Of a stretch of DNA of 64,000 nt, positions 21,667 to 57,117 are shown piece by piece (the first letter of the stretch is position 1; each line of letters begins with the position of its first letter). This DNA comes from an uncultured Gemmatimonadales bacterium (lineage in GTDB: Bacteria; Gemmatimonadota; Gemmatimonadetes; Gemmatimonadales; GWC2-71-9), in contig CAWHQC010000015.1 of assembly GCA_963831425.1 (NCBI GenBank), positions 100,821 through 164,820 on the forward strand, written 5' to 3'. The notes beneath the pieces are model-generated. The model ran no database searches. It saw only the letters and a list, made by a program, of their open reading frames with translations, and was not told the origin of the DNA. Both the position numbers and the translations under genes were made by a program.

Positions 21667-22170
21667 ATGAGGCGGTGCCGCCTGGTGGAGAAGATGTGGG
21701 TGCTGCTCCCGGCGATGGCCTGCACCCCGCTGGGTCTCTGGATGTACCAGGACCCGGGGGTGACGGTGTCTCGGGTGCGGCTGGGCACCGAGCCGACGGA
21801 CTCCGCGCCCGTCGTGGTGGCGCTCGACGTCAGCAATCCCAATGACTATGGAGTCTCGACCACCCGGGTCGAGCTCTGGTTGAGACTGGACGATCGGCCC
21901 ATCGGCCGCCTCGATCGCACCAGCCATGTGGCACTGCCCCAGGTGGCGACCTCCACCGTAGCGCTTCCGCTCGTTCCCGACCGCGGCACGAGCGCCGCCC
22001 AGCTCCGGGCATTCGGGTCGGGTGTCCATCGCTTCATGGTCGAGGGGCGGGCCACGTTCGCTACCCCGATCGGGAGCCGGAAGGTCCGGTTCGCCCAGGA
22101 GGGCCAGTTGGCGTTCGGGCCGCCAGCTTTGCCAGCATCCGCTCCAGCCGGTCCAGATGCGTCACCGTGA
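21667..22170 (+). CDS. LEA_2/NDR1-HIN1-like (water-stress type) membrane-anchored protein.
   Basis: [104 protein letters not shown] (inner Met of ORF 21358..22170). The family call is from memory. Confidence 0.45.
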
Positions 22171-25100
22171 GCGTCACCACCCCGAACTCCTCCTCGACCT
22201 TCCCCCGAAAGATGAACGGTCCCTGATCGAACAGCACGTGACCGCGCTCACGATAGATGTCCGGGAAGAGCACGACCTCGATGAGCCCGTCGCCATCGTC
22301 GAAGGTGGCGAACTCCATCGGCTCGTCCTTCAGCGTGTGGACCGGCTTGGCGCTGGTGAGCATCCCGGCCGCCAGCACGTGCTCGCCTACGTGCCGGTGC
22401 AGTTCCGTGCTGGGACAGAGCCGGAACCGCCGGAGGTCGTCCGCGTAGAGCCGCATCGGGTGCGCGTCGGTGGTGAAGCCGAGGGCGGCGTGCTCCTCCC
22501 GGCGGCGGCGCTCGGGGCCGTACTCCTTGAGCACGGGCACGGCGGGCGGAAGGTGGTCGAACCAGTCGCCCGGGCGATCGTCGGGTGAGCGGACGCACTC
22601 GGCGGTCGAATCCACCAGCCAGAGCATCATGGGCCGGGTCCAGTCGCCCGCGATCGAGTCCAGCGCGCCGACCTTGATGAGCGCGCGCAGGTCGGCGGGG
22701 GAGATGCCGGTGCGGGCGCGGAGGTCGGCCAGGCTGGTGAACGGGCGGAAGGATGGAAGGACGGAAGGCGGAAAGGGAGAAAGGACCCGCGGCCAGGCAC
22801 CGGCACTGTCATCCCGAGCGGAACTGTCATCCCGGGCGGAACTGTCATCCCGAGCGGAGCGAGGGATCTGGCCGGGCCGAGCTCGAACCATTCCCAGCAA
22901 GATCCCTCCGTCGCTGGCGCTCCCTCGGGATGACAGTCCCGCTCGTCGTCTTCCTCCGCCCGCTTCTCCCTCCCTCCATCCCGCGCTTCCAGCACCCGCT
23001 CGGCCCCCTCCGCCGACAGCTCCTTCACGAACTGCAGCCCGATCCGGAGCTCCCGCCCGCGGCCGGTCGTGCGGAGTTCGCTCGCGTTCACGTCGGGCGG
23101 CAGCACGGTGAGCCCCATGCGCATGGCCTCGGCGACGTAGACGAACGGGTGATAGAACCCGCCCCCGTTGGCCAGCACCGCGGCCATGAACTCGGCCGGA
23201 TGGTGCGCGCGCAGGTAGCACGCGTGCTGCGCCACCTGGATGTACGACGCCGAGTGTCCCTTGCAGAAGCTGTAGCCGGCGAACGACAGGATCATCGCCC
23301 AGACCCGCTTGGCCGTCTCGGCGTCGCGGCCGAGCGCGAGCGCGCCGGTGAAGAACTCCTCGGCGTAGCCGGCGAGCGCCCTGGCGGGTCTCTTCTTGGA
23401 GAGCGACTTCCGGAGTCCGTCGGCGGTGGCGAGCGGCATCCCGGCAAAGGCGGCGCACACGTTGACCACGTCCTCCTGGTAGACCATGACGCCGAACGTC
23501 TCGGCCAGCGTGTCGCGCAGCACGGGGTCGAGCGGCTCATAGGGCGCGCCGTGCAGCCGCTCGAGATAGAGCCGGATGAAACGGTTGGAAGCGGGGCGGA
23601 TGATGCTGGTGTTGAGTACCAGCAGCTCGAAGGTGTCGGCCCGACTCTTGGCGCAGAGCGCCCGCGAGGCGGGCGACTCGGTGTAGAACACGCCCATCGT
23701 CCGGCCGGTCCGGAAGAGCTCCTTCGTGGGCTCGTCGTCGCCGGGATCGGAGGAGGTGTAGTCGATGTGCCGGCCGGTGTGCGCGTGCACCGCCGTGATG
23801 GCGTCGCGGATGACGGCCAGCGAGCGGTTGCCGAGCAGGTCGATCTTGATCAGCCCCGTGTCTTCGGCGCCGTCCTTCTCGAACTGGATGACGGGCACGG
23901 TCAGATCCGGGTGCCCGTCGAGCGTCTTGACCGCGCGCTCGGTCGGCACGTAGTCGGTGAGCGCGGTGGGCACGATCACGACGCCGCCCGGGTGAAGCGA
24001 GAGGTGCCGCGGCACGCCCACCAGCGGCGCCGCCATCCGGGCCAGCTCCTGCCAGCTCGGCGGCAGGTCGAGCGCCTTGAAGTTGGGATGGGTGGCGAGC
24101 ATCTCCTCGAGCGGCTGCTCCTCGTACCACGGGATCCGGCGCGTCACCTCGCGGATCTCGCCGTTGGGCCGCCCGTGCACCTTGGCCACCTCCCGGAGCG
24201 CGCCGCGGAGGCGGAAGCAGTTGTGGTTGGCCACCATCGCGGCCTGCGGATGGGGGTAGTGCCGGAACACGTAGGCCAGAACGTTGTCGCGCTCGTCCCA
24301 CGGAAAGTCGAGGTCGATGTCGGGCGGGTCCGTGCGCGCCGGATTGAGGAACCGCTCGAACAGGAGCCCCGCGCCGAGCGGCTCGACGTGGGTGATGCCG
24401 AGACAGTAGCTCACGATCGAGTTGGCGACGGAGCCGCGGCCGCAGTGGGTGGGGCCGTGCTCGACGATGTCGCGCACCACCAGGAAGTAGTCGGCGAACC
24501 CCTTCATCCCGATGATCCGGAGCTCGTGCTCGAGCCGGTCGCGCGTCACCGGCGCGATGGTGCCGTAGCGCCGCTCGGCGCCGGCATAGGCGAGCGCGCG
24601 GAGCTCCTGGGTGGCGTCGTTCGCGTCGGCGAAGCGCGGCGACACCACGCGGCCCACCGGAATCCGGTACGCGCAGCGCTCGGCGATCTCGGCCGCGGCC
24701 CGCAGCGCCTCGGGGCAGTCCGGGAACTGGCGCGTGAGGTCGGCGGTGGGGCGGAGCCAGGCGTCGCGGGCAGACGGTCGGGCGGGCAGGCGGTCGGGTG
24801 GTTGGGGGGTCTCACTCTCCTCCCGACCGTCCGACCGCCTGTCCACCCGCCCGCCCGAGAGCGTGCCGTTGAGGTGGATCGCCCGGAGGAGCCGGTGGCG
24901 GCTCCAGTCTTCGGGGTGCGCCATGACGACGGCGTTGGTGACGACGGGCGGAAGGCCCATGCGGCGCGCGGCGGCGAGCACGGCGTGGCGCTTCTTGCCG
25001 GGACGGAGCTCGGCGTAGAGGTCCCGCGGCCCACTCAGGCGGAGAACGCGCTCCAGGAAGGCGGGATCCTGTGAGAGGAGGACGAGGCCGGCGCGATCGG

Positions 25101-25509
25101 CGGCGAGGGAGGCGGAAAGACGGAAAGACGGAACGACGGAAGGATGGAAAGGCGGGGCAGGTAACCCCGATCGCGGCTGATTGTCCTTCCGTCCCTCCAT
25201 CTTTCCGTCCTTCCCTCCTTCCGTCCAGTGAATCTCCGTGATCGTCCGGCAGAGCGCCGCCCACCCGCGCTCGTCCATCGCGAGGGCGACGGTCTCCTCA
25301 TCCTCGGTGACGAGGTGCGCGCCGAGGATGGGTCGCACGCCGGCAGCCTCGCAGACGCGCTGGAACTCGACGGCTCCGTAGACGCCATTGGTGTCGGTGC
25401 AGGCAAGCGTGCCGAACCCTCGCTCGGCCGCCGCGCCGGCAAGGACCTCGGGACTCGAAACACCGGTGCCGAAGGAGAAGTGGGTGTGGAGGTGCAGGTG
25501 GGTAAACAT
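22061..25509 (-). CDS. dnaE2: Error-prone DNA polymerase III alpha homologue DnaE2. It carries two in-frame hairpin-repeat insertions and a 236-nt composite repeat insertion that changes the reading frame near the C-terminus.
   Basis: The PHP start [21 protein letters not shown] and full-length alpha-subunit similarity lie in ORF 22627..25752 ([14 protein letters not shown].., [48 protein letters not shown]). After ..[19 protein letters not shown] the conserved sequence resumes as [29 protein letters not shown].. in ORF 22061..23458. Confidence 0.85.
22745..22980. mobile_element. Composite nested palindromic (MITE-like) insertion inside dnaE2.
   Basis: The outer arms are GGAAGGATGGAAGGACGGAAGGCGGAAAGGGAGAAAGG (22748..22785) and its approximate complement at 22946..22983. 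The inner element has three 18-nt tandem units CTGTCATCCCGRGCGGAA (22806..22859). The last extends to ..GCGAGGGATCT and pairs with AGATCCCTCC..CCCTCGGGATGACAG (22900..22936). Confidence 0.75.
24772..24852. repeat. 81-nt hairpin element with 8-nt periodic G-rich/C-rich arms, in frame inside dnaE2.
   Basis: AGACGGTCGGGCGGGCAGGCGGTCGGGTGGTTGG, loop, TCCCGACCGTCCGACCGCCTGTCCACCCGCCCGCCCGA. It is translated as [27 protein letters not shown] between conserved ..LNGTLSG and ARDAWLRP... Confidence 0.7.
25105..25226. repeat. About 120-nt hairpin element with 8-nt periodic purine/pyrimidine arms, in frame inside the dnaE2 PHP region.
   Basis: GGAGGCGGAAAGACGGAAAGACGGAACGACGGAAGGATGGAAAGGCGG, 28-nt loop, TCCTTCCGTCCCTCCATCTTTCCGTCCTTCCCTCCTTCCGTCC. 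It is translated as [41 protein letters not shown]. Confidence 0.7.
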
Positions 25510-25545
25510 TTGCGTGTGCGCCCACCGGGGTACGAGACGGGGGTG

Positions 25546-25564
25546 GTTCGGGTTTTCTTCGGTA
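25546..25564 (+). promoter_or_regulatory. Direct-repeat operator candidate GTTCGGGttttcTTCGGTA (11-bp period), upstream of dnaE2.
   Basis: It lies 37-55 nt upstream of the dnaE2 ATG (25509) and downstream of a TTGACG hexamer (coding strand, 25592..25587). 16 of 19 positions are identical to the site at 36904..36922. Confidence 0.5.
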
Positions 25565-25928
25565 AGGTGCTGTCGGCGGCGGCGCGCGTCAAGGAGGCGC
25601 GGAAGCCGTGGGCTTCGGACGCGCCATCCTGACCCAGCTCCGCGCTCACCTCCTGCCGAAGGCCCCGGCACTTGCCGGCATGGTGGCCGCTGGTGGATCG
25701 CGAACACGTTCACCGATTCTCCCGTGCGTTCGGTGCTTCGCTCGGTCGACATCGGCCGCGGAGGAACGCACGTGGTCAGCGGTTCGGTGTAGAAGGCGAT
25801 GCACTTCTGGCTGCCGCTGCTGGCGGCGGCGCTCTGCGCCTATCTGGGCGAGGCATCGCGAGCGATTAACGCCAGCCGGCCGGAGCACGGCACCGCATCA
25901 CGGCGGCCGATTTTTCCTCCGATGATGC

Positions 25929-42280: not shown

Positions 42281-42432
42281 GATTCACCACAGAGGCACAG
42301 AGGGCACGGAGGGTTCCCATACCGGGAGGGCACCTGGGACCCGGACAACACCAACGACTTGATGGTGGCTCCGCTCCCGGATGCTCTCCGTGTCCCGGCC
42401 CCTCCGTGCCCTCTGTGCCTCTGTAGTGAATC
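42281..42432. mobile_element. 152-bp MITE with 32-nt terminal inverted repeats (31 of 32 match), TTCACC family.
   Basis: The left arm is GATTCACCACAGAGGCACAGAGGGCACGGAGG (42281..42312). The right arm is CCTCCGTGCCCTCTGTGCCTCTGTAGTGAATC (42401..42432). It lies between the convergent stops at 42248 and 42449. Confidence 0.75.
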
Positions 42433-48068: not shown

Positions 48069-48918
48069 TGCTGCTGCTGCCGTTCGCGCCGCTGCTGGAC
48101 GAGCGATCGCGACCTACGGTGCCGTTCGAGTGGGCCTGGTCCCTGCACCCCAGCGTCCTCCTGGGCACCGGAATCCTCGGTGCCCTCTATTTTTACGGGA
48201 TCGGGCCGTGGCGCCGGCGGCGTGGACTCCCCGGGTTCCCGCCTGGAAGGTGGCGTCGTTCTGCGGGGCGCTGCTCGTGCTGCTGGGCTCGCTCAACGGG
48301 CCGGTGCACGATCTCAGCGACTACTATCTCTTCACCGCCCATATGGTGCAGCACCTGCTGCTCACCCTGGTCTTCCCCCCGCTGCTGCTCGCCGGAACGC
48401 CCGGATGGCTGCTTCAGCCGCTGCTCCGCCCGCCCGCCGTGCGGCGGCTTGCCCGGGTGCTCACCCAGCCGTTGCTGGCTGCCGTGCTGTTCAGCGCCGC
48501 CATCATCGTGTGGCATCTGCCACCGTTCTACGAGCTGATGATGCGCGACCACGACGTCCACATCCTGACGCACCTGATGTTCATGGTCACCGCCACCCTG
48601 CTCTGGTGGCCGGTCATGAGCCCGGTGCCCGAGCTGCCACGGCTCGGCTACGGCCTCGGGATGCTGTATCTCTTTCTGGTGGGGATCCCGATGCAGATCG
48701 TCGCGGCGATGATCTCGCTGGCCGGCGGGGTACTCTACCCCTGGTACAGCGCGGCCCCGCGCACGTGGGGCCTCTCGCCGCTGGACGACCAGCAGCTCGG
48801 CGGCCTGATCATGTGGGTGCCCGCGAATCTCTACATGTTCCTGGCCATCGGCGTGCTGTTCTTCGCGTGGGCGAGGGAGAGCGAGCGGGAGGACGGCGGT
48901 GAGCGGCAGGGGGTGTGA
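48065..48918 (+). CDS. ctaG: Cytochrome c oxidase assembly factor CtaG (caa3-type), one frameshift near 48230.
   Basis: The ATG overlaps the ctaF stop (ATGA). MMLLLPFAPLLDE..WAWSLHPSVLLGTGILGALYFYGIGPWRRR lies in ORF 47243..48538. VASFCGALLVLLGSLNGPVHDLSDYYLFTAHMVQHLLLTLVFPPLLLAGTP..HILTHLMFMVTATLLWWPV..LGGLIMWVPANLYM lies in ORF 48130..48918. Confidence 0.8.
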
Positions 48919-48975
48919 GGGTGAGAGGTGAAAGGTGAGAGGTGAGAGGTGAGAGGTGAGAGGTGAGAGGTGAGA
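48912..48975 (+). repeat. Tandem heptamer array (GGTGAGA)n, about 9 units.
   Basis: GGTGTGA GGGTGAGA GGTGAAA GGTGAGA x6, read directly. The ctaG stop codon lies in the first unit. Confidence 0.9.
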
Positions 48976-49056
48976 GCAGGTGGGCTGCGCTTTGTGAGCC
49001 ATGTGTGCGGCGGGGAGATTTGAGGGGACTGGCCACGGCGTGTAGCATGCGATCAC

Positions 49057-49422
49057 ATGCAGGATCACAAGTCGATCGTCGCCTGGCAGGAAGCCCATGA
49101 GGTGGCCCGAGCCGCACTGCGGACCTGCCGCACGCAGTGGAAGCCGTACGCCGCGGCGCTCTTCGGGCAGCTCCAGCGTTCCTCACTCTCGGTACAGCTC
49201 AACATCGCTGAGGGTTATGCGCTGCGATCGCCTCGACGATTTTATTACCATCTCCAAGTGGCATATGGATCGGCTGTCGAGACGGCGGAGCTCCTGGAGT
49301 TGGCCATCGAGGAAGGAGTGCTCCCGGATCCGGAAGGTCAGGCCATACTCGCGAGATGTCGCCGAACGCAGTCCCTCTTACTCGGTCTCGTCCGGCGCTA
49401 CCGTCCGGCCACGCCCCGCTGA
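49057..49422 (+). CDS. Four-helix-bundle protein (23S rRNA intervening-sequence protein family). Intact.
   Basis: MQDHKSIVAWQEAHEVARAALRTCRTQWKPYAAALFGQLQRSSLSVQLNIAEGYALRSPRRFYYHLQVAYGSAVETAELLELAIEEGVL.. matches my memory of the family pattern (W..A..L.., Q..RS..SI..NIAEG.., GS..E..). Confidence 0.75.
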   Translation: MQDHKSIVAWQEAHEVARAALRTCRTQWKPYAAALFGQLQRSSLSVQLNIAEGYALRSPRRFYYHLQVAYGSAVETAELLELAIEEGVLPDPEGQAILARCRRTQSLLLGLVRRYRPATPR

Positions 49423-49432
49423 TCCCCCCACC

Positions 49433-49505
49433 GCTCACCTCTCACCTCTCACCTCTTACCTCTCACCTCTTACCTCTTACCTCTCATCCCTCACCGCTCA
49501 CCGCC
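49433..49505 (+). repeat. Tandem heptamer array (TCTCACC/TCTTACC)n, the inverted partner of 48912..48975.
   Basis: GCTCACC TCTCACC TCTCACC TCTTACC TCTCACC TCTTACC TCTTACC TCTCATCCC TCACCGCTCACC, read directly. Confidence 0.9.
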
Positions 49506-53079: not shown

Positions 53080-53088
53080 GGGGGCTTT

Positions 53089-53116
53089 CGTGAGTCGTGG
53101 GTCGTGAGTCGTGGGT
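53089..53116 (+). repeat. Tandem 14-mer x2, CGTGAGTCGTGGGT (7-nt sub-period GTGRGTC).
   Basis: Read directly, in the 55-nt spacer between the fabI start and the ABC permease stop. Confidence 0.8.
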
Positions 53117-53134
53117 CCGAGCAAGTATATCCCT

Positions 53135-56346: not shown

Positions 56347-57079
56347 GGTCTCAATGATATCCCGGTGGGGAGGGCTCGGTCTGCTGGTGATCGCGGCCGC
56401 GGCGTGCGACCGGACACCGGCGCCTCCGGCCGCGGCGCCGCCGCCCGCGGGATCGGCGGCAGCCGCGGCCGACTCGCGCGGCCGCGTGGTCTTTCTCGGC
56501 ACGAGCCTCACGGCGGGGCTGGGCCTCGATCCGGCCAAGGCATATCCCGCGCTGCTGCAGCGGAAGATCGACTCCGCCGGGCTGCCCCTCACCGTGGTCA
56601 ATGCCGGCGTGAGCGGCGAGACCTCGGCGGGTGCGCGGCGGCGCATCGATTGGCTCATGCGGGAGCCGGCGGCCGTGCTGGTGATCGAGACCGGCGCGAA
56701 CGACGCGCTTCGCGGGCTCGACGTGGACTCGATGGTAGCCAACATCCAGGCGATCATCGACCGCGCGCGGCAACAGGTGCCGCCACCGGAAATCGTGCTG
56801 ATCGGGATGCGCGCGCCGCCGAATCTCGGCGCTGCCTACGTTCGACGGTTCGACGCGGCCTACGCCACTCTGGCCCGACGGAACCGGGTAGCGCTGGTGC
56901 CGTTCCTGCTCGAGGGGGTGGCGGGGGTCGACTCGCTCAACCAGGCCGACGCCATTCACCCGACGGCAGCAGGACAGCGAAAGCTGGCGGAGACGGTGTG
57001 GCCGGAGGTGAAGCGGGCAGGCGGTCGCGCGGTCGGGCGGGCGGAAGGTCAGGCGGGCAGGCGGTCAGGGCCTTCCTGA
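56345..57079 (+). CDS. SGNH/GDSL arylesterase-lysophospholipase (TesA-like) lipoprotein. The C-terminal about 20 codons are supplied by a hairpin repeat.
   Basis: ..GLGLLVIAAAAC.. then VVFLGTSLTAGLGL..VNAGVSGETSAG..VIETGANDALRG..ADAIHPTAAGQRKLAE (ORF 56324..57079). It is divergent from the ABC pair, as in the E. coli tesA/ybbA/ybbP arrangement. Confidence 0.8.
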   Translation: MVSMISRWGGLGLLVIAAAACDRTPAPPAAAPPPAGSAAAAADSRGRVVFLGTSLTAGLGLDPAKAYPALLQRKIDSAGLPLTVVNAGVSGETSAGARRRIDWLMREPAAVLVIETGANDALRGLDVDSMVANIQAIIDRARQQVPPPEIVLIGMRAPPNLGAAYVRRFDAAYATLARRNRVALVPFLLEGVAGVDSLNQADAIHPTAAGQRKLAETVWPEVKRAGGRAVGRAEGQAGRRSGPS

Positions 57080-57117
57080 ACTTGGGTCCGACCGTCCGAC
57101 CGCCGATCGCCGGCCGC
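57013..57117. repeat. Hairpin element with 8-nt periodic G-rich arm (GCGGKCRG units) and a shorter complementary arm. Same family as 24772..24852.
   Basis: GCGGGCAGGCGGTCGCGCGGTCGGGCGGGCGGAAGGTCAGGCGGGCAGGCGGTCAGGG, loop CCTTCCTGAACTTGGG, then TCCGACCGTCCGACCGCCGATCGCCGGCCGC. It lies between the convergent lipase and aminotransferase genes. Confidence 0.7.

Follow-up and report, generated by a model that had tools for sequence, protein, structure and literature searches.

A hairpin of about 120 nt is read in frame within the PHP domain of a DnaE2-like polymerase gene from an uncultured soil Gemmatimonadales bacterium. The stretch of DNA that was analysed, hereafter the window, is 64,000 nt long (assembly GCA_963831425.1, contig CAWHQC010000015.1, positions 100,821 to 164,820 of the forward strand), and positions are given in its numbering; the genome itself, 3.9 Mb and 86% complete, is called G000. 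On balance, we regard this hairpin (H1) as probably a translated local copy of lineage-specific, genome-wide tandem-armed palindromic repeats, one that occupies what was ancestrally a surface linker of 11 codons in the PHP domain.

An in-frame hairpin in a DnaE-family polymerase gene

The features of the gene and of the hairpin on which the argument rests are as follows.

22061..25509, minus strand: DnaE-family (DnaE2-like) polymerase gene, start MFTHLHLH at 25509 (open reading frames, Pfam, PDB matches, NCBIfam)
25102..25224, minus strand: variable segment, from the W codon (25225-25227) to ADRAGL, 123 nt here vs 33 nt in the ancestral form (orthologue alignment, predicted structure)
25105..25226, minus strand: H1, an inverted pair of 8-nt tandem arrays within the PHP domain, in frame (sequence, fold, Tandem Repeats Finder)
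25183..25226, minus strand: 5' arm of H1 in gene orientation, purine-rich, GGAAGGAC-type, ~5.5 units (Tandem Repeats Finder, translation)
25156..25182, minus strand: loop of H1, ~27 nt (BLAST of the element against the genome; the corresponding segment of the relative L031)
25113..25155, minus strand: 3' arm of H1 in gene orientation, pyrimidine-rich, TTCCGTCT-type, ~5.4 units (Tandem Repeats Finder, translation)

Both arms of H1 are made of tandem 8-nt units of the GGAAGGAC type, and Tandem Repeats Finder (TRF) returned CGGAAAGA x5.4 at 25113-25155 and GTCCTTCC x5.5 at 25183-25226, each with a period of 8. The arms are 81-87% complementary with a spacing of 27-39 nt, and the G-rich array contains GG runs only. 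Folded as RNA, the sense (-) strand reached a minimum free energy (MFE) of -78.2 kcal/mol, whereas dinucleotide-shuffled versions gave -54.5 +/- 4.2 (z = -5.6, 0/200). Under DNA folding parameters, z was -4.3 (sense strand) and -2.4 (antisense strand). A search against Rfam revealed no known RNA family; its hits, which lay on both strands, were to generic miRNA-precursor hairpins and scored below threshold. In the protein, H1 is preceded by ...ITEIHW and followed by ADRAGL..., with the frame open throughout. Because the purine arm lacks T and the pyrimidine arm lacks A, the arms cannot encode stop codons. The 24 nt at 25102-25125 (FRLSASLA) are native linker-helix sequence and double as the outermost stem of H1. 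With an arm complementarity of ~81% and mismatches spread evenly over both strands, H1 looks like an ageing copy. Sequence, TRF, fold and open reading frame (ORF) all confirmed what a preliminary description of this DNA had claimed, namely a hairpin with 8-nt-period arms that keeps the reading frame within the PHP domain of a DnaE-family protein; the translation agrees with the one given there.

The ORF containing H1 (22627..25752, minus strand) matched PHP, DNA_pol3_alpha, finger and HHH_6 in Pfam, the PHP match breaking off at H1. Its frame shifts inside a further hairpin of the same gene (H3, described below), and the C-terminus is carried on in the ORF 22061..23458. The polymerase matches Pol III alpha of E. 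coli, Thermus and Mycobacterium by both sequence and fold (PDB). Since a separate DnaE1-like gene is present in G000 on contig C28 at ~97.7 kb, the gene with H1 is the second DnaE paralogue and was named DnaE2-like. The NCBIfam model NF004225 ('error-prone DNA polymerase') scored 490 bits, below its cut-off of 939, and the superfamily model TIGR00594 alone passed; the inserts and the truncated ORF depress the NF004225 score. The identification as dnaE2 made in the preliminary description is likely on these sequence grounds, being consistent with the DnaE architecture and the presence of a second paralogue, although not with the NCBIfam cut-off.

The quality of the assembly bears on how this gene is read. 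Over 311 kb, G000 differs from its 93%-identical relative G061 by ~1,200 one-base indels, and the replicative dnaE1 (C28:96997-99133 and downstream) is split by frameshifts. The G000 assembly is indel-error-prone and its apparent pseudogenes are to be distrusted, so that the frame change inside H3 was not taken as the mark of a dead gene. The many one-nucleotide indels and the frameshifted dnaE1 would also suit the idea that H1 is an assembly artefact, either a fold-back chimera or a collapsed repeat; this idea is, however, hardly credible, because an independent Illumina metagenome-assembled genome (MAG) of the 93%-identical relative (L031/G061) has the identical loop and arms with fewer units, and because dozens of assemblies made independently have hairpins at the equivalent codon position. 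Searched with the whole element, G000 yielded BLAST hits to the arms only, the loop having a single occurrence in that genome.

In an AlphaFold model of the protein, built on an alignment of 43 orthologue N-termini, the PHP fold had a predicted local distance difference test score (pLDDT) of ~95, and the H1 insert (residues ~97-130) was rendered as coil with a pLDDT of 53-61. Native LSASLA formed a confident short helix C-terminal to the insert, and in alignment with E. coli Pol III alpha the H1 site comes immediately behind that protein's helix ..ISKAYQRG. On the PHP domain, the insert is thus modelled as part of a surface loop that is disordered, which answers the question of a surface-loop position raised in the preliminary description.

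A hypervariable site and a genome-wide repeat class

The segment between ...IHW and (A)DRxGL was extracted from ~100 orthologous loci, all from Gemmatimonadales MAGs, giving 86 distinct segments that span 33-255 nt; within the genus the range is 39-255 nt, in 37 different lengths. Frame is preserved at the site, as the preliminary description had anticipated: 84 of the 86 distinct segments are multiples of three and none contains an in-frame stop (0/86), indicating translation of the segment and purifying selection on the gene. The two out-of-frame orthologues belong to long-read or error-prone assemblies. Seventeen distinct segments measure 33 nt, and in more distant Gemmatimonadales such segments read DPDLALSAQLA or near variants (HHDLVLSAQLA; ESNFAISRQLS at ~53% identity). 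From this comparison, the 33-nt, 11-residue linker is the ancestral state, and the net gain here is ~90 nt (~30 residues). The in-frame insert reported in the preliminary description therefore stands, while its size of roughly 40 residues does not.

What occupies the site differs widely among species. Hairpins with GGAAGGAC units were found in this genome and at L031, L005, L008 and L015, and other repeat hairpins, of the GGACGGGC, GGTCGGAC, GGGCGGGC and 'GTCACCCTGAGCGAAGCG' types, in further species. Purine-rich arrays without a partner arm are present at L037, L038 and L069, and L060 has two arrays that are mutually non-complementary. An MFE density of -0.5 kcal/nt or lower was reached by 31 of the 51 segments of at least 60 nt. 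In a tree of the flanks, the hairpin type follows phylogeny in part, and some sister taxa differ. Even in L031, the closest relative (96% amino acid identity in the N-terminal flank by which the segments were extracted), the 5' arm has 2 units vs 5 here. Hypervariability at the H1 site is of long standing: across nearly all related species this hotspot has been refilled with different hairpins. Alignment of the orthologues bore out the extra DNA but not the single discrete insertion that had been supposed; the orthologues carry a homologous 11-residue segment.

The repeat class was surveyed in G000 through TRF pairs, regular-expression arrays and an ungapped palindrome scan (strict inverted-repeat finders miss the degraded H1 copy), and the coding status of hairpins was judged from third-position GC in 150-nt flanks. 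Approximately 144-229 strong hairpins were identified, nearly all of them noncoding or at gene edges. Their kinds include 8-nt GGAAGGAC, 8-nt GGCGGTCR/CGGGCGGG, 7-nt GGTGAGA/GCGGTGA and 7-nt AGTCGCG units, along with a longer ~150-nt CACAGAGG element and an ~86-nt 'CTGTCATCCCGAGCG-AGCGAGGGATCT' core that is often centred in periodic arms. Strict (GGNN)x6 arrays numbered 66 vs 0 in shuffled sequence, and were placed in noncoding DNA (45), at gene edges (19), between oppositely oriented genes (1) and in frame (1). The pattern (GGAAGGAC)x3 with at most 3 mismatches gave 197 matches in G000 vs 2 for a reversed control, confirming the earlier proposal that H1 is part of a genome-wide repeat population. 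Loads of this pattern were comparably high in G010 (241), G061 (203), G012 (194) and G032 (123), and ranged from 0 to 54 in the other 33 genomes of the genus (reversed-pattern controls, 0-2). The five highest-load genomes are exactly the five with a GGAAGGAC hairpin in dnaE2, and they fall into two separate clades of the flank tree. Across the phylum, loose (GGVV)x6 arrays had a patchy distribution inside the family and were rare in other classes, which is a rough sign only, as these counts are inflated by poly-G runs and the reversed control is itself almost the same motif.

Copies of the GGAAGGAC kind have their arms alone in common, with no common loop or full-length consensus; apart from the repeat unit, no fixed sequence was noticed among them, although no formal motif test for a repetitive extragenic palindromic (REP) head was run. 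The periodic hairpins of G000 are strictly polarized, with the purine-rich arm 5' in 99 vs 3 cases and a skew of G over C in 111 vs 5; hairpins with the pyrimidine arm first are essentially absent. Since both strands of an inverted repeat read alike, this polarity is a genuine asymmetry of the class. Within the window, a further periodic hairpin with GCGGTCAG / GTCCGACC arrays lies at 57013-57117.

Translated periodic hairpins are few, ~7 genome-wide, with two or three in dnaE2, two in kinases, one in a helicase and one unassigned. Besides H1, dnaE2 carries the following two.

24776..24852, minus strand: H2, a translated periodic-arm hairpin with GGGCGGGC/GGTCGGAC units (TRF, Rfam, DNA fold, palindrome scan, pLDDT)
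22745..22980, minus strand: H3, GGAAGGAC-type arms round a nested 'CTGTCATCCCGAGCG..' core with 18-nt repeats, in the helix-hairpin-helix (HhH) region (TRF, Pfam)

H2 folds as DNA with z = -3.7, gives generic Rfam hairpin hits on both strands, and encodes a second disordered PHP loop in the AlphaFold model (residues 213-245, pLDDT 46-49); its position is hypervariable among orthologues too. H3 carries an apparent frameshift in G000, and the relative G061 has only a one-armed array at that site. In the two kinases, which are paralogous Ser/Thr kinases, an in-frame AGTCGCG-heptamer hairpin lies at an equivalent position of the kinase domain, ..DSGE to LLYYVMPY.. (C2:97474-97540 and C26:86521-86594). 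The helicase, which is UvrD/PcrA-like, has an in-frame GGTCGGAC-type hairpin in its UvrD_C-Tudor linker (C9:41172-41263).

Origin and turnover of the periodic arms

The comparison of 339 kb of G061 with G000 at 93% identity revealed how the periodic hairpins change between close relatives. Some differences comprise whole units, as at C32:22387, where G061 is longer by 36 nt of TTCCGTCY units. In others the unit type has been swapped: at the intergenic C5:49870-50167, G000 has GGAAGGAC/GGCAGGAC arms with a core vs a 74-nt GGGCGGTC hairpin in G061. A complete heptamer hairpin of G000 at C30:113098-113229 corresponds to two units and a tiny hairpin in G061, and at window 53088-53117 a one-armed TCGTGAG heptamer array in G000 corresponds to a full hairpin in G061, which has 45 nt more, including the complementary arm. 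Units are common to different loci inside one genome, yet orthologous loci in related genomes differ.

The step from a one-armed array to a full hairpin at 53088-53117 is among the observations that would fit a purely local origin of H1, in which a native linker repeat (TTCCGTCT TTCCGCC, encoding FRLSA) was expanded by slippage and inverted by template switching, with no sequence from any other locus. The dnaE2 site itself offers a graded series in the same sense, from empty through short, purine-only (L037, L038, L069) and non-complementary (L060) to full; the 3' arm of H1 merges into native codons, and the loops are unique. Nevertheless, we consider such an origin unlikely. The GGAAGGAC unit occurs ~200 times in the genome, its presence in dnaE2 tracks the genome-wide load, and the sharing of units within a genome but not between orthologous loci is not what a purely local process would produce.

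The palindromic architecture and many copies could also suggest a classical non-autonomous transposon, that is, a miniature transposable element with inverted repeats (MITE), a REP doublet hairpin (REPIN) moved by a REP-associated tyrosine transposase (RAYT), or a true relative of the Rickettsia palindromic elements (RPEs), inserted once with terminal inverted repeats. Families of this sort do exist in the genome: the 'CTGTCATCCCGAGCG' core, ~150-nt CACAGAGG and ~300-nt GGTCGCTGCAGTG families are conserved over their full length and differ by presence or absence between G000 and G061, simply so for the core and ~300-nt families. One ~300-nt inverted-repeat element (GGTCGCTGCAGTGCGCGTG...) at C28:255062-255294 recurs at ~7 other loci and is cleanly absent from the orthologous site of G061. 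The ~150-nt element with CACAGAGG(G) arms, at window 42288-42424, is conserved over its full length; G061 and G032 contain dozens of its copies at 70-92% identity, so that, in contrast to the GGAAGGAC class, it seems to be a genuine MITE-like dispersed family. For H1 itself a transposon is very improbable. The Y1/RAYT transposase domain PF01797 gave 0 hits in the 86% complete G000, with control genomes positive, and neither target-site duplications nor clean empty sites were seen for the periodic class between G000 and G061. Copies with arms alone in common, one-armed arrays and variation in unit number are likewise at odds with a defined element. In-frame tolerance of palindromic DNA, as in RPEs, was rightly recognized in the preliminary description; its label of a selfish mobile element goes beyond the evidence, because only the unit is in common and neither target duplication nor transposase was found.

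If H1 is instead a local copy of the genome-wide repeats, the 11-codon PHP linker would have become a persistent hairpin site in the genus, where repeat units are gained and lost by slippage. The arms may be re-templated from each other and from other loci, whether by template switching, gene conversion or a further enzyme, with the unit family currently abundant in the genome as the source; cut-and-paste transposition of a defined element would not be involved. Survival in a coding gene could potentially be explained by stop-free arms, a peptide confined to a disordered loop, and selection on the polymerase that purges non-multiples of three. The H1 copy would need no function of its own.

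Several observations weigh against this account. Neither an enzyme nor a mechanism that would copy the class came to light. For GGTCGGAC, whose carriers have loads of 160, 43, 13 and 3, genomic load is only moderately tied to the unit at the site. Two or three of the ~7 translated periodic hairpins are in dnaE2, an enrichment that simple tolerance leaves unexplained, and the indel errors of G000 make the exact unit counts of H1 not fully trustworthy. A further observation concerns a non-periodic hairpin of 95-147 nt at the same dnaE2 codon position (L011, L022, L024, L025, L026, L095), which is single-copy per genome and therefore no mobile family. In this clade 96.6% of cells are paired and covariation is clear: 11 of 34 pairs are double-changed vs 4.1 +/- 1.5 in shuffles (0/500) and vs 0-2 when the partners were slid. 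Hairpin shape can thus be kept here in the absence of a repeat family, a hint of selection on structure or of a locus-intrinsic process.

These last findings are also the strongest ground for a functional structure, in which an mRNA or DNA hairpin is kept to control the error-prone polymerase (through RNase III or the pausing of ribosome or RNA polymerase), or serves as a frame-shifting contingency switch. Most members of the genus have a hairpin at the site whatever its sequence, as the MFE densities above indicate, and the concentration of translated hairpins in dnaE2 agrees with a function. For a switch, the relevant contingency-locus feature is present, an intragenic repeat with an 8-nt unit that is not a multiple of 3; unit number differs between close relatives, and two orthologues as well as H3 are out of frame, although these out-of-frame cases come from long-read or error-prone assemblies. 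On the sense strand of the non-periodic clade, G.U mismatches occur at ~11 positions vs A.C at 3. Such a pattern would be expected from selection on mRNA structure, whereas arm-to-arm template switching would give the double changes without selection, but not the G.U bias. Six sequences are too few to separate the two, and the functional alternative was retained for that reason. Its overall probability is nonetheless fairly low. Identical hairpins fill intergenic DNA genome-wide, and H1 shows no strand-specific signal, its G.T (6) and A.C (5) mismatches being balanced. Stability favours the sense strand in 19 of 36 hairpin-type orthologues and the antisense strand in the other 17 (p = 0.52). 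An mRNA-strand-specific structure was accordingly rejected for H1 and for the site overall, the single-copy clade excepted, and we infer that the structure of H1 itself is not selected.

A stronger version would have the dnaE2 hairpins be anything but passive, making the polymerase a high-rate frame-flipping contingency gene and/or subjecting DnaE2 to a selected mRNA or DNA structure that throttles it. We hold this version to be improbable; the selected-structure part draws on the single-copy clade, whose hairpin, kept at the same codon, shows compensatory changes and mismatches biased to G.U.

Relation to known repeat systems and implications

The preliminary description regarded periodic-arm hairpins as undescribed, yet they are in print. 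They have been reported as the short tandemly repeated repetitive (STRR) hairpins of cyanobacteria (PMC2670836), as convergent pairs of GGGNATC arrays in Xanthomonas and Nostoc (Rehm 2015, PMC4692102), and as four-fold hepta- and octanucleotide array families in Geobacter metallireducens, some of them 'within genes' (PMC2700814). The H1 class most resembles the STRR-type inverted short-tandem-repeat arrays, which it fits on every feature compared: tandem units of 7-9 nt, many copies with noncoding DNA over-represented, unit number varying between relatives, convergent pairs with the G-rich array 5' on each strand as in the arrays of Rehm 2015, and, as in Geobacter, some copies inside genes. 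It differs in its units, GGAAGGAC and relatives, in its phylum, Gemmatimonadota, and in that a complete hairpin is read in frame inside a conserved catalytic-domain fold and one codon position is refilled across species. We found no paper on in-frame read-through of a full hairpin in a conserved catalytic fold or on cross-species refilling of one codon. The octamer families of Gemmatimonadales are new, as are the full-hairpin read-through in such a fold and the series of alleles at one codon.

Other systems are less similar. With RPEs, H1 shares a palindromic repeat of ~100-150 nt that lies in frame in conserved genes and is translated as an added surface segment that leaves the protein undestroyed. 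RPE families have a conserved full-length consensus, and every insertion is a discrete event. By description, the H1 class is set apart from them by having only the 8-nt unit in common, a unique loop, unit-wise length change at a hotspot and an overwhelmingly extragenic distribution. REP and REPIN sequences are likewise high-copy extragenic palindromic repeats that form hairpin pairs, but the present genome has no RAYT (PF01797) and no fixed REP sequence, and its arms are of variable unit number.

A third comparison involves the PF05635 four-helix-bundle family (23S rRNA intervening-sequence protein). In Coxiella, the 23S rRNA intervening sequence (IVS) bears an ORF and has inverted tandem arms (PMC4990558). 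In G000, each of the three PF05635 genes occupies the loop of a periodic-arm hairpin; the arms have a different unit in each case, GGAAGGAC in one:

window 48915-49502; C6:24067-24563; C33:109437-110094: PF05635 genes in periodic-arm hairpins

In genomes of the same genus, 23-24 of 30 PF05635 genes are bracketed by inverted 7/8-nt arrays with many different units. The G061 counterpart of the window copy (48915-49502) lacks 172 nt inside the ORF. Like PF05635/IVS cassettes, H1 has a stem of inverted tandem short repeats tolerated in an essential or conserved gene; unlike them, its 27-nt loop holds no gene, and it lies in translated mRNA rather than in an rRNA helix removed by RNase III. Given that PF05635 genes lie within periodic arms, the small periodic hairpins may be gene-less relatives of such cassettes. 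The 99:3 polarity together with PF05635 genes inside arms could reflect a dedicated array-building activity, of which the dnaE2 hairpins would be footprints.

For genome annotation, inserts of this kind lower hidden Markov model scores and mimic pseudogenes in error-prone assemblies. For the biology of these repeats, any mechanism must explain two testable regularities, namely the polarity and the correspondence between genome load and the unit that occupies the site, and the ~86 alleles at one codon position form a natural series in which hairpin birth, growth, unit replacement and decay can be read. Tandem-armed hairpins, which are poorly understood and have mostly been known between genes, can pass through translation inside a conserved enzyme fold. 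If it were true that the hairpins modulate an error-prone polymerase, this repeat system would be tied to the control of mutagenesis.

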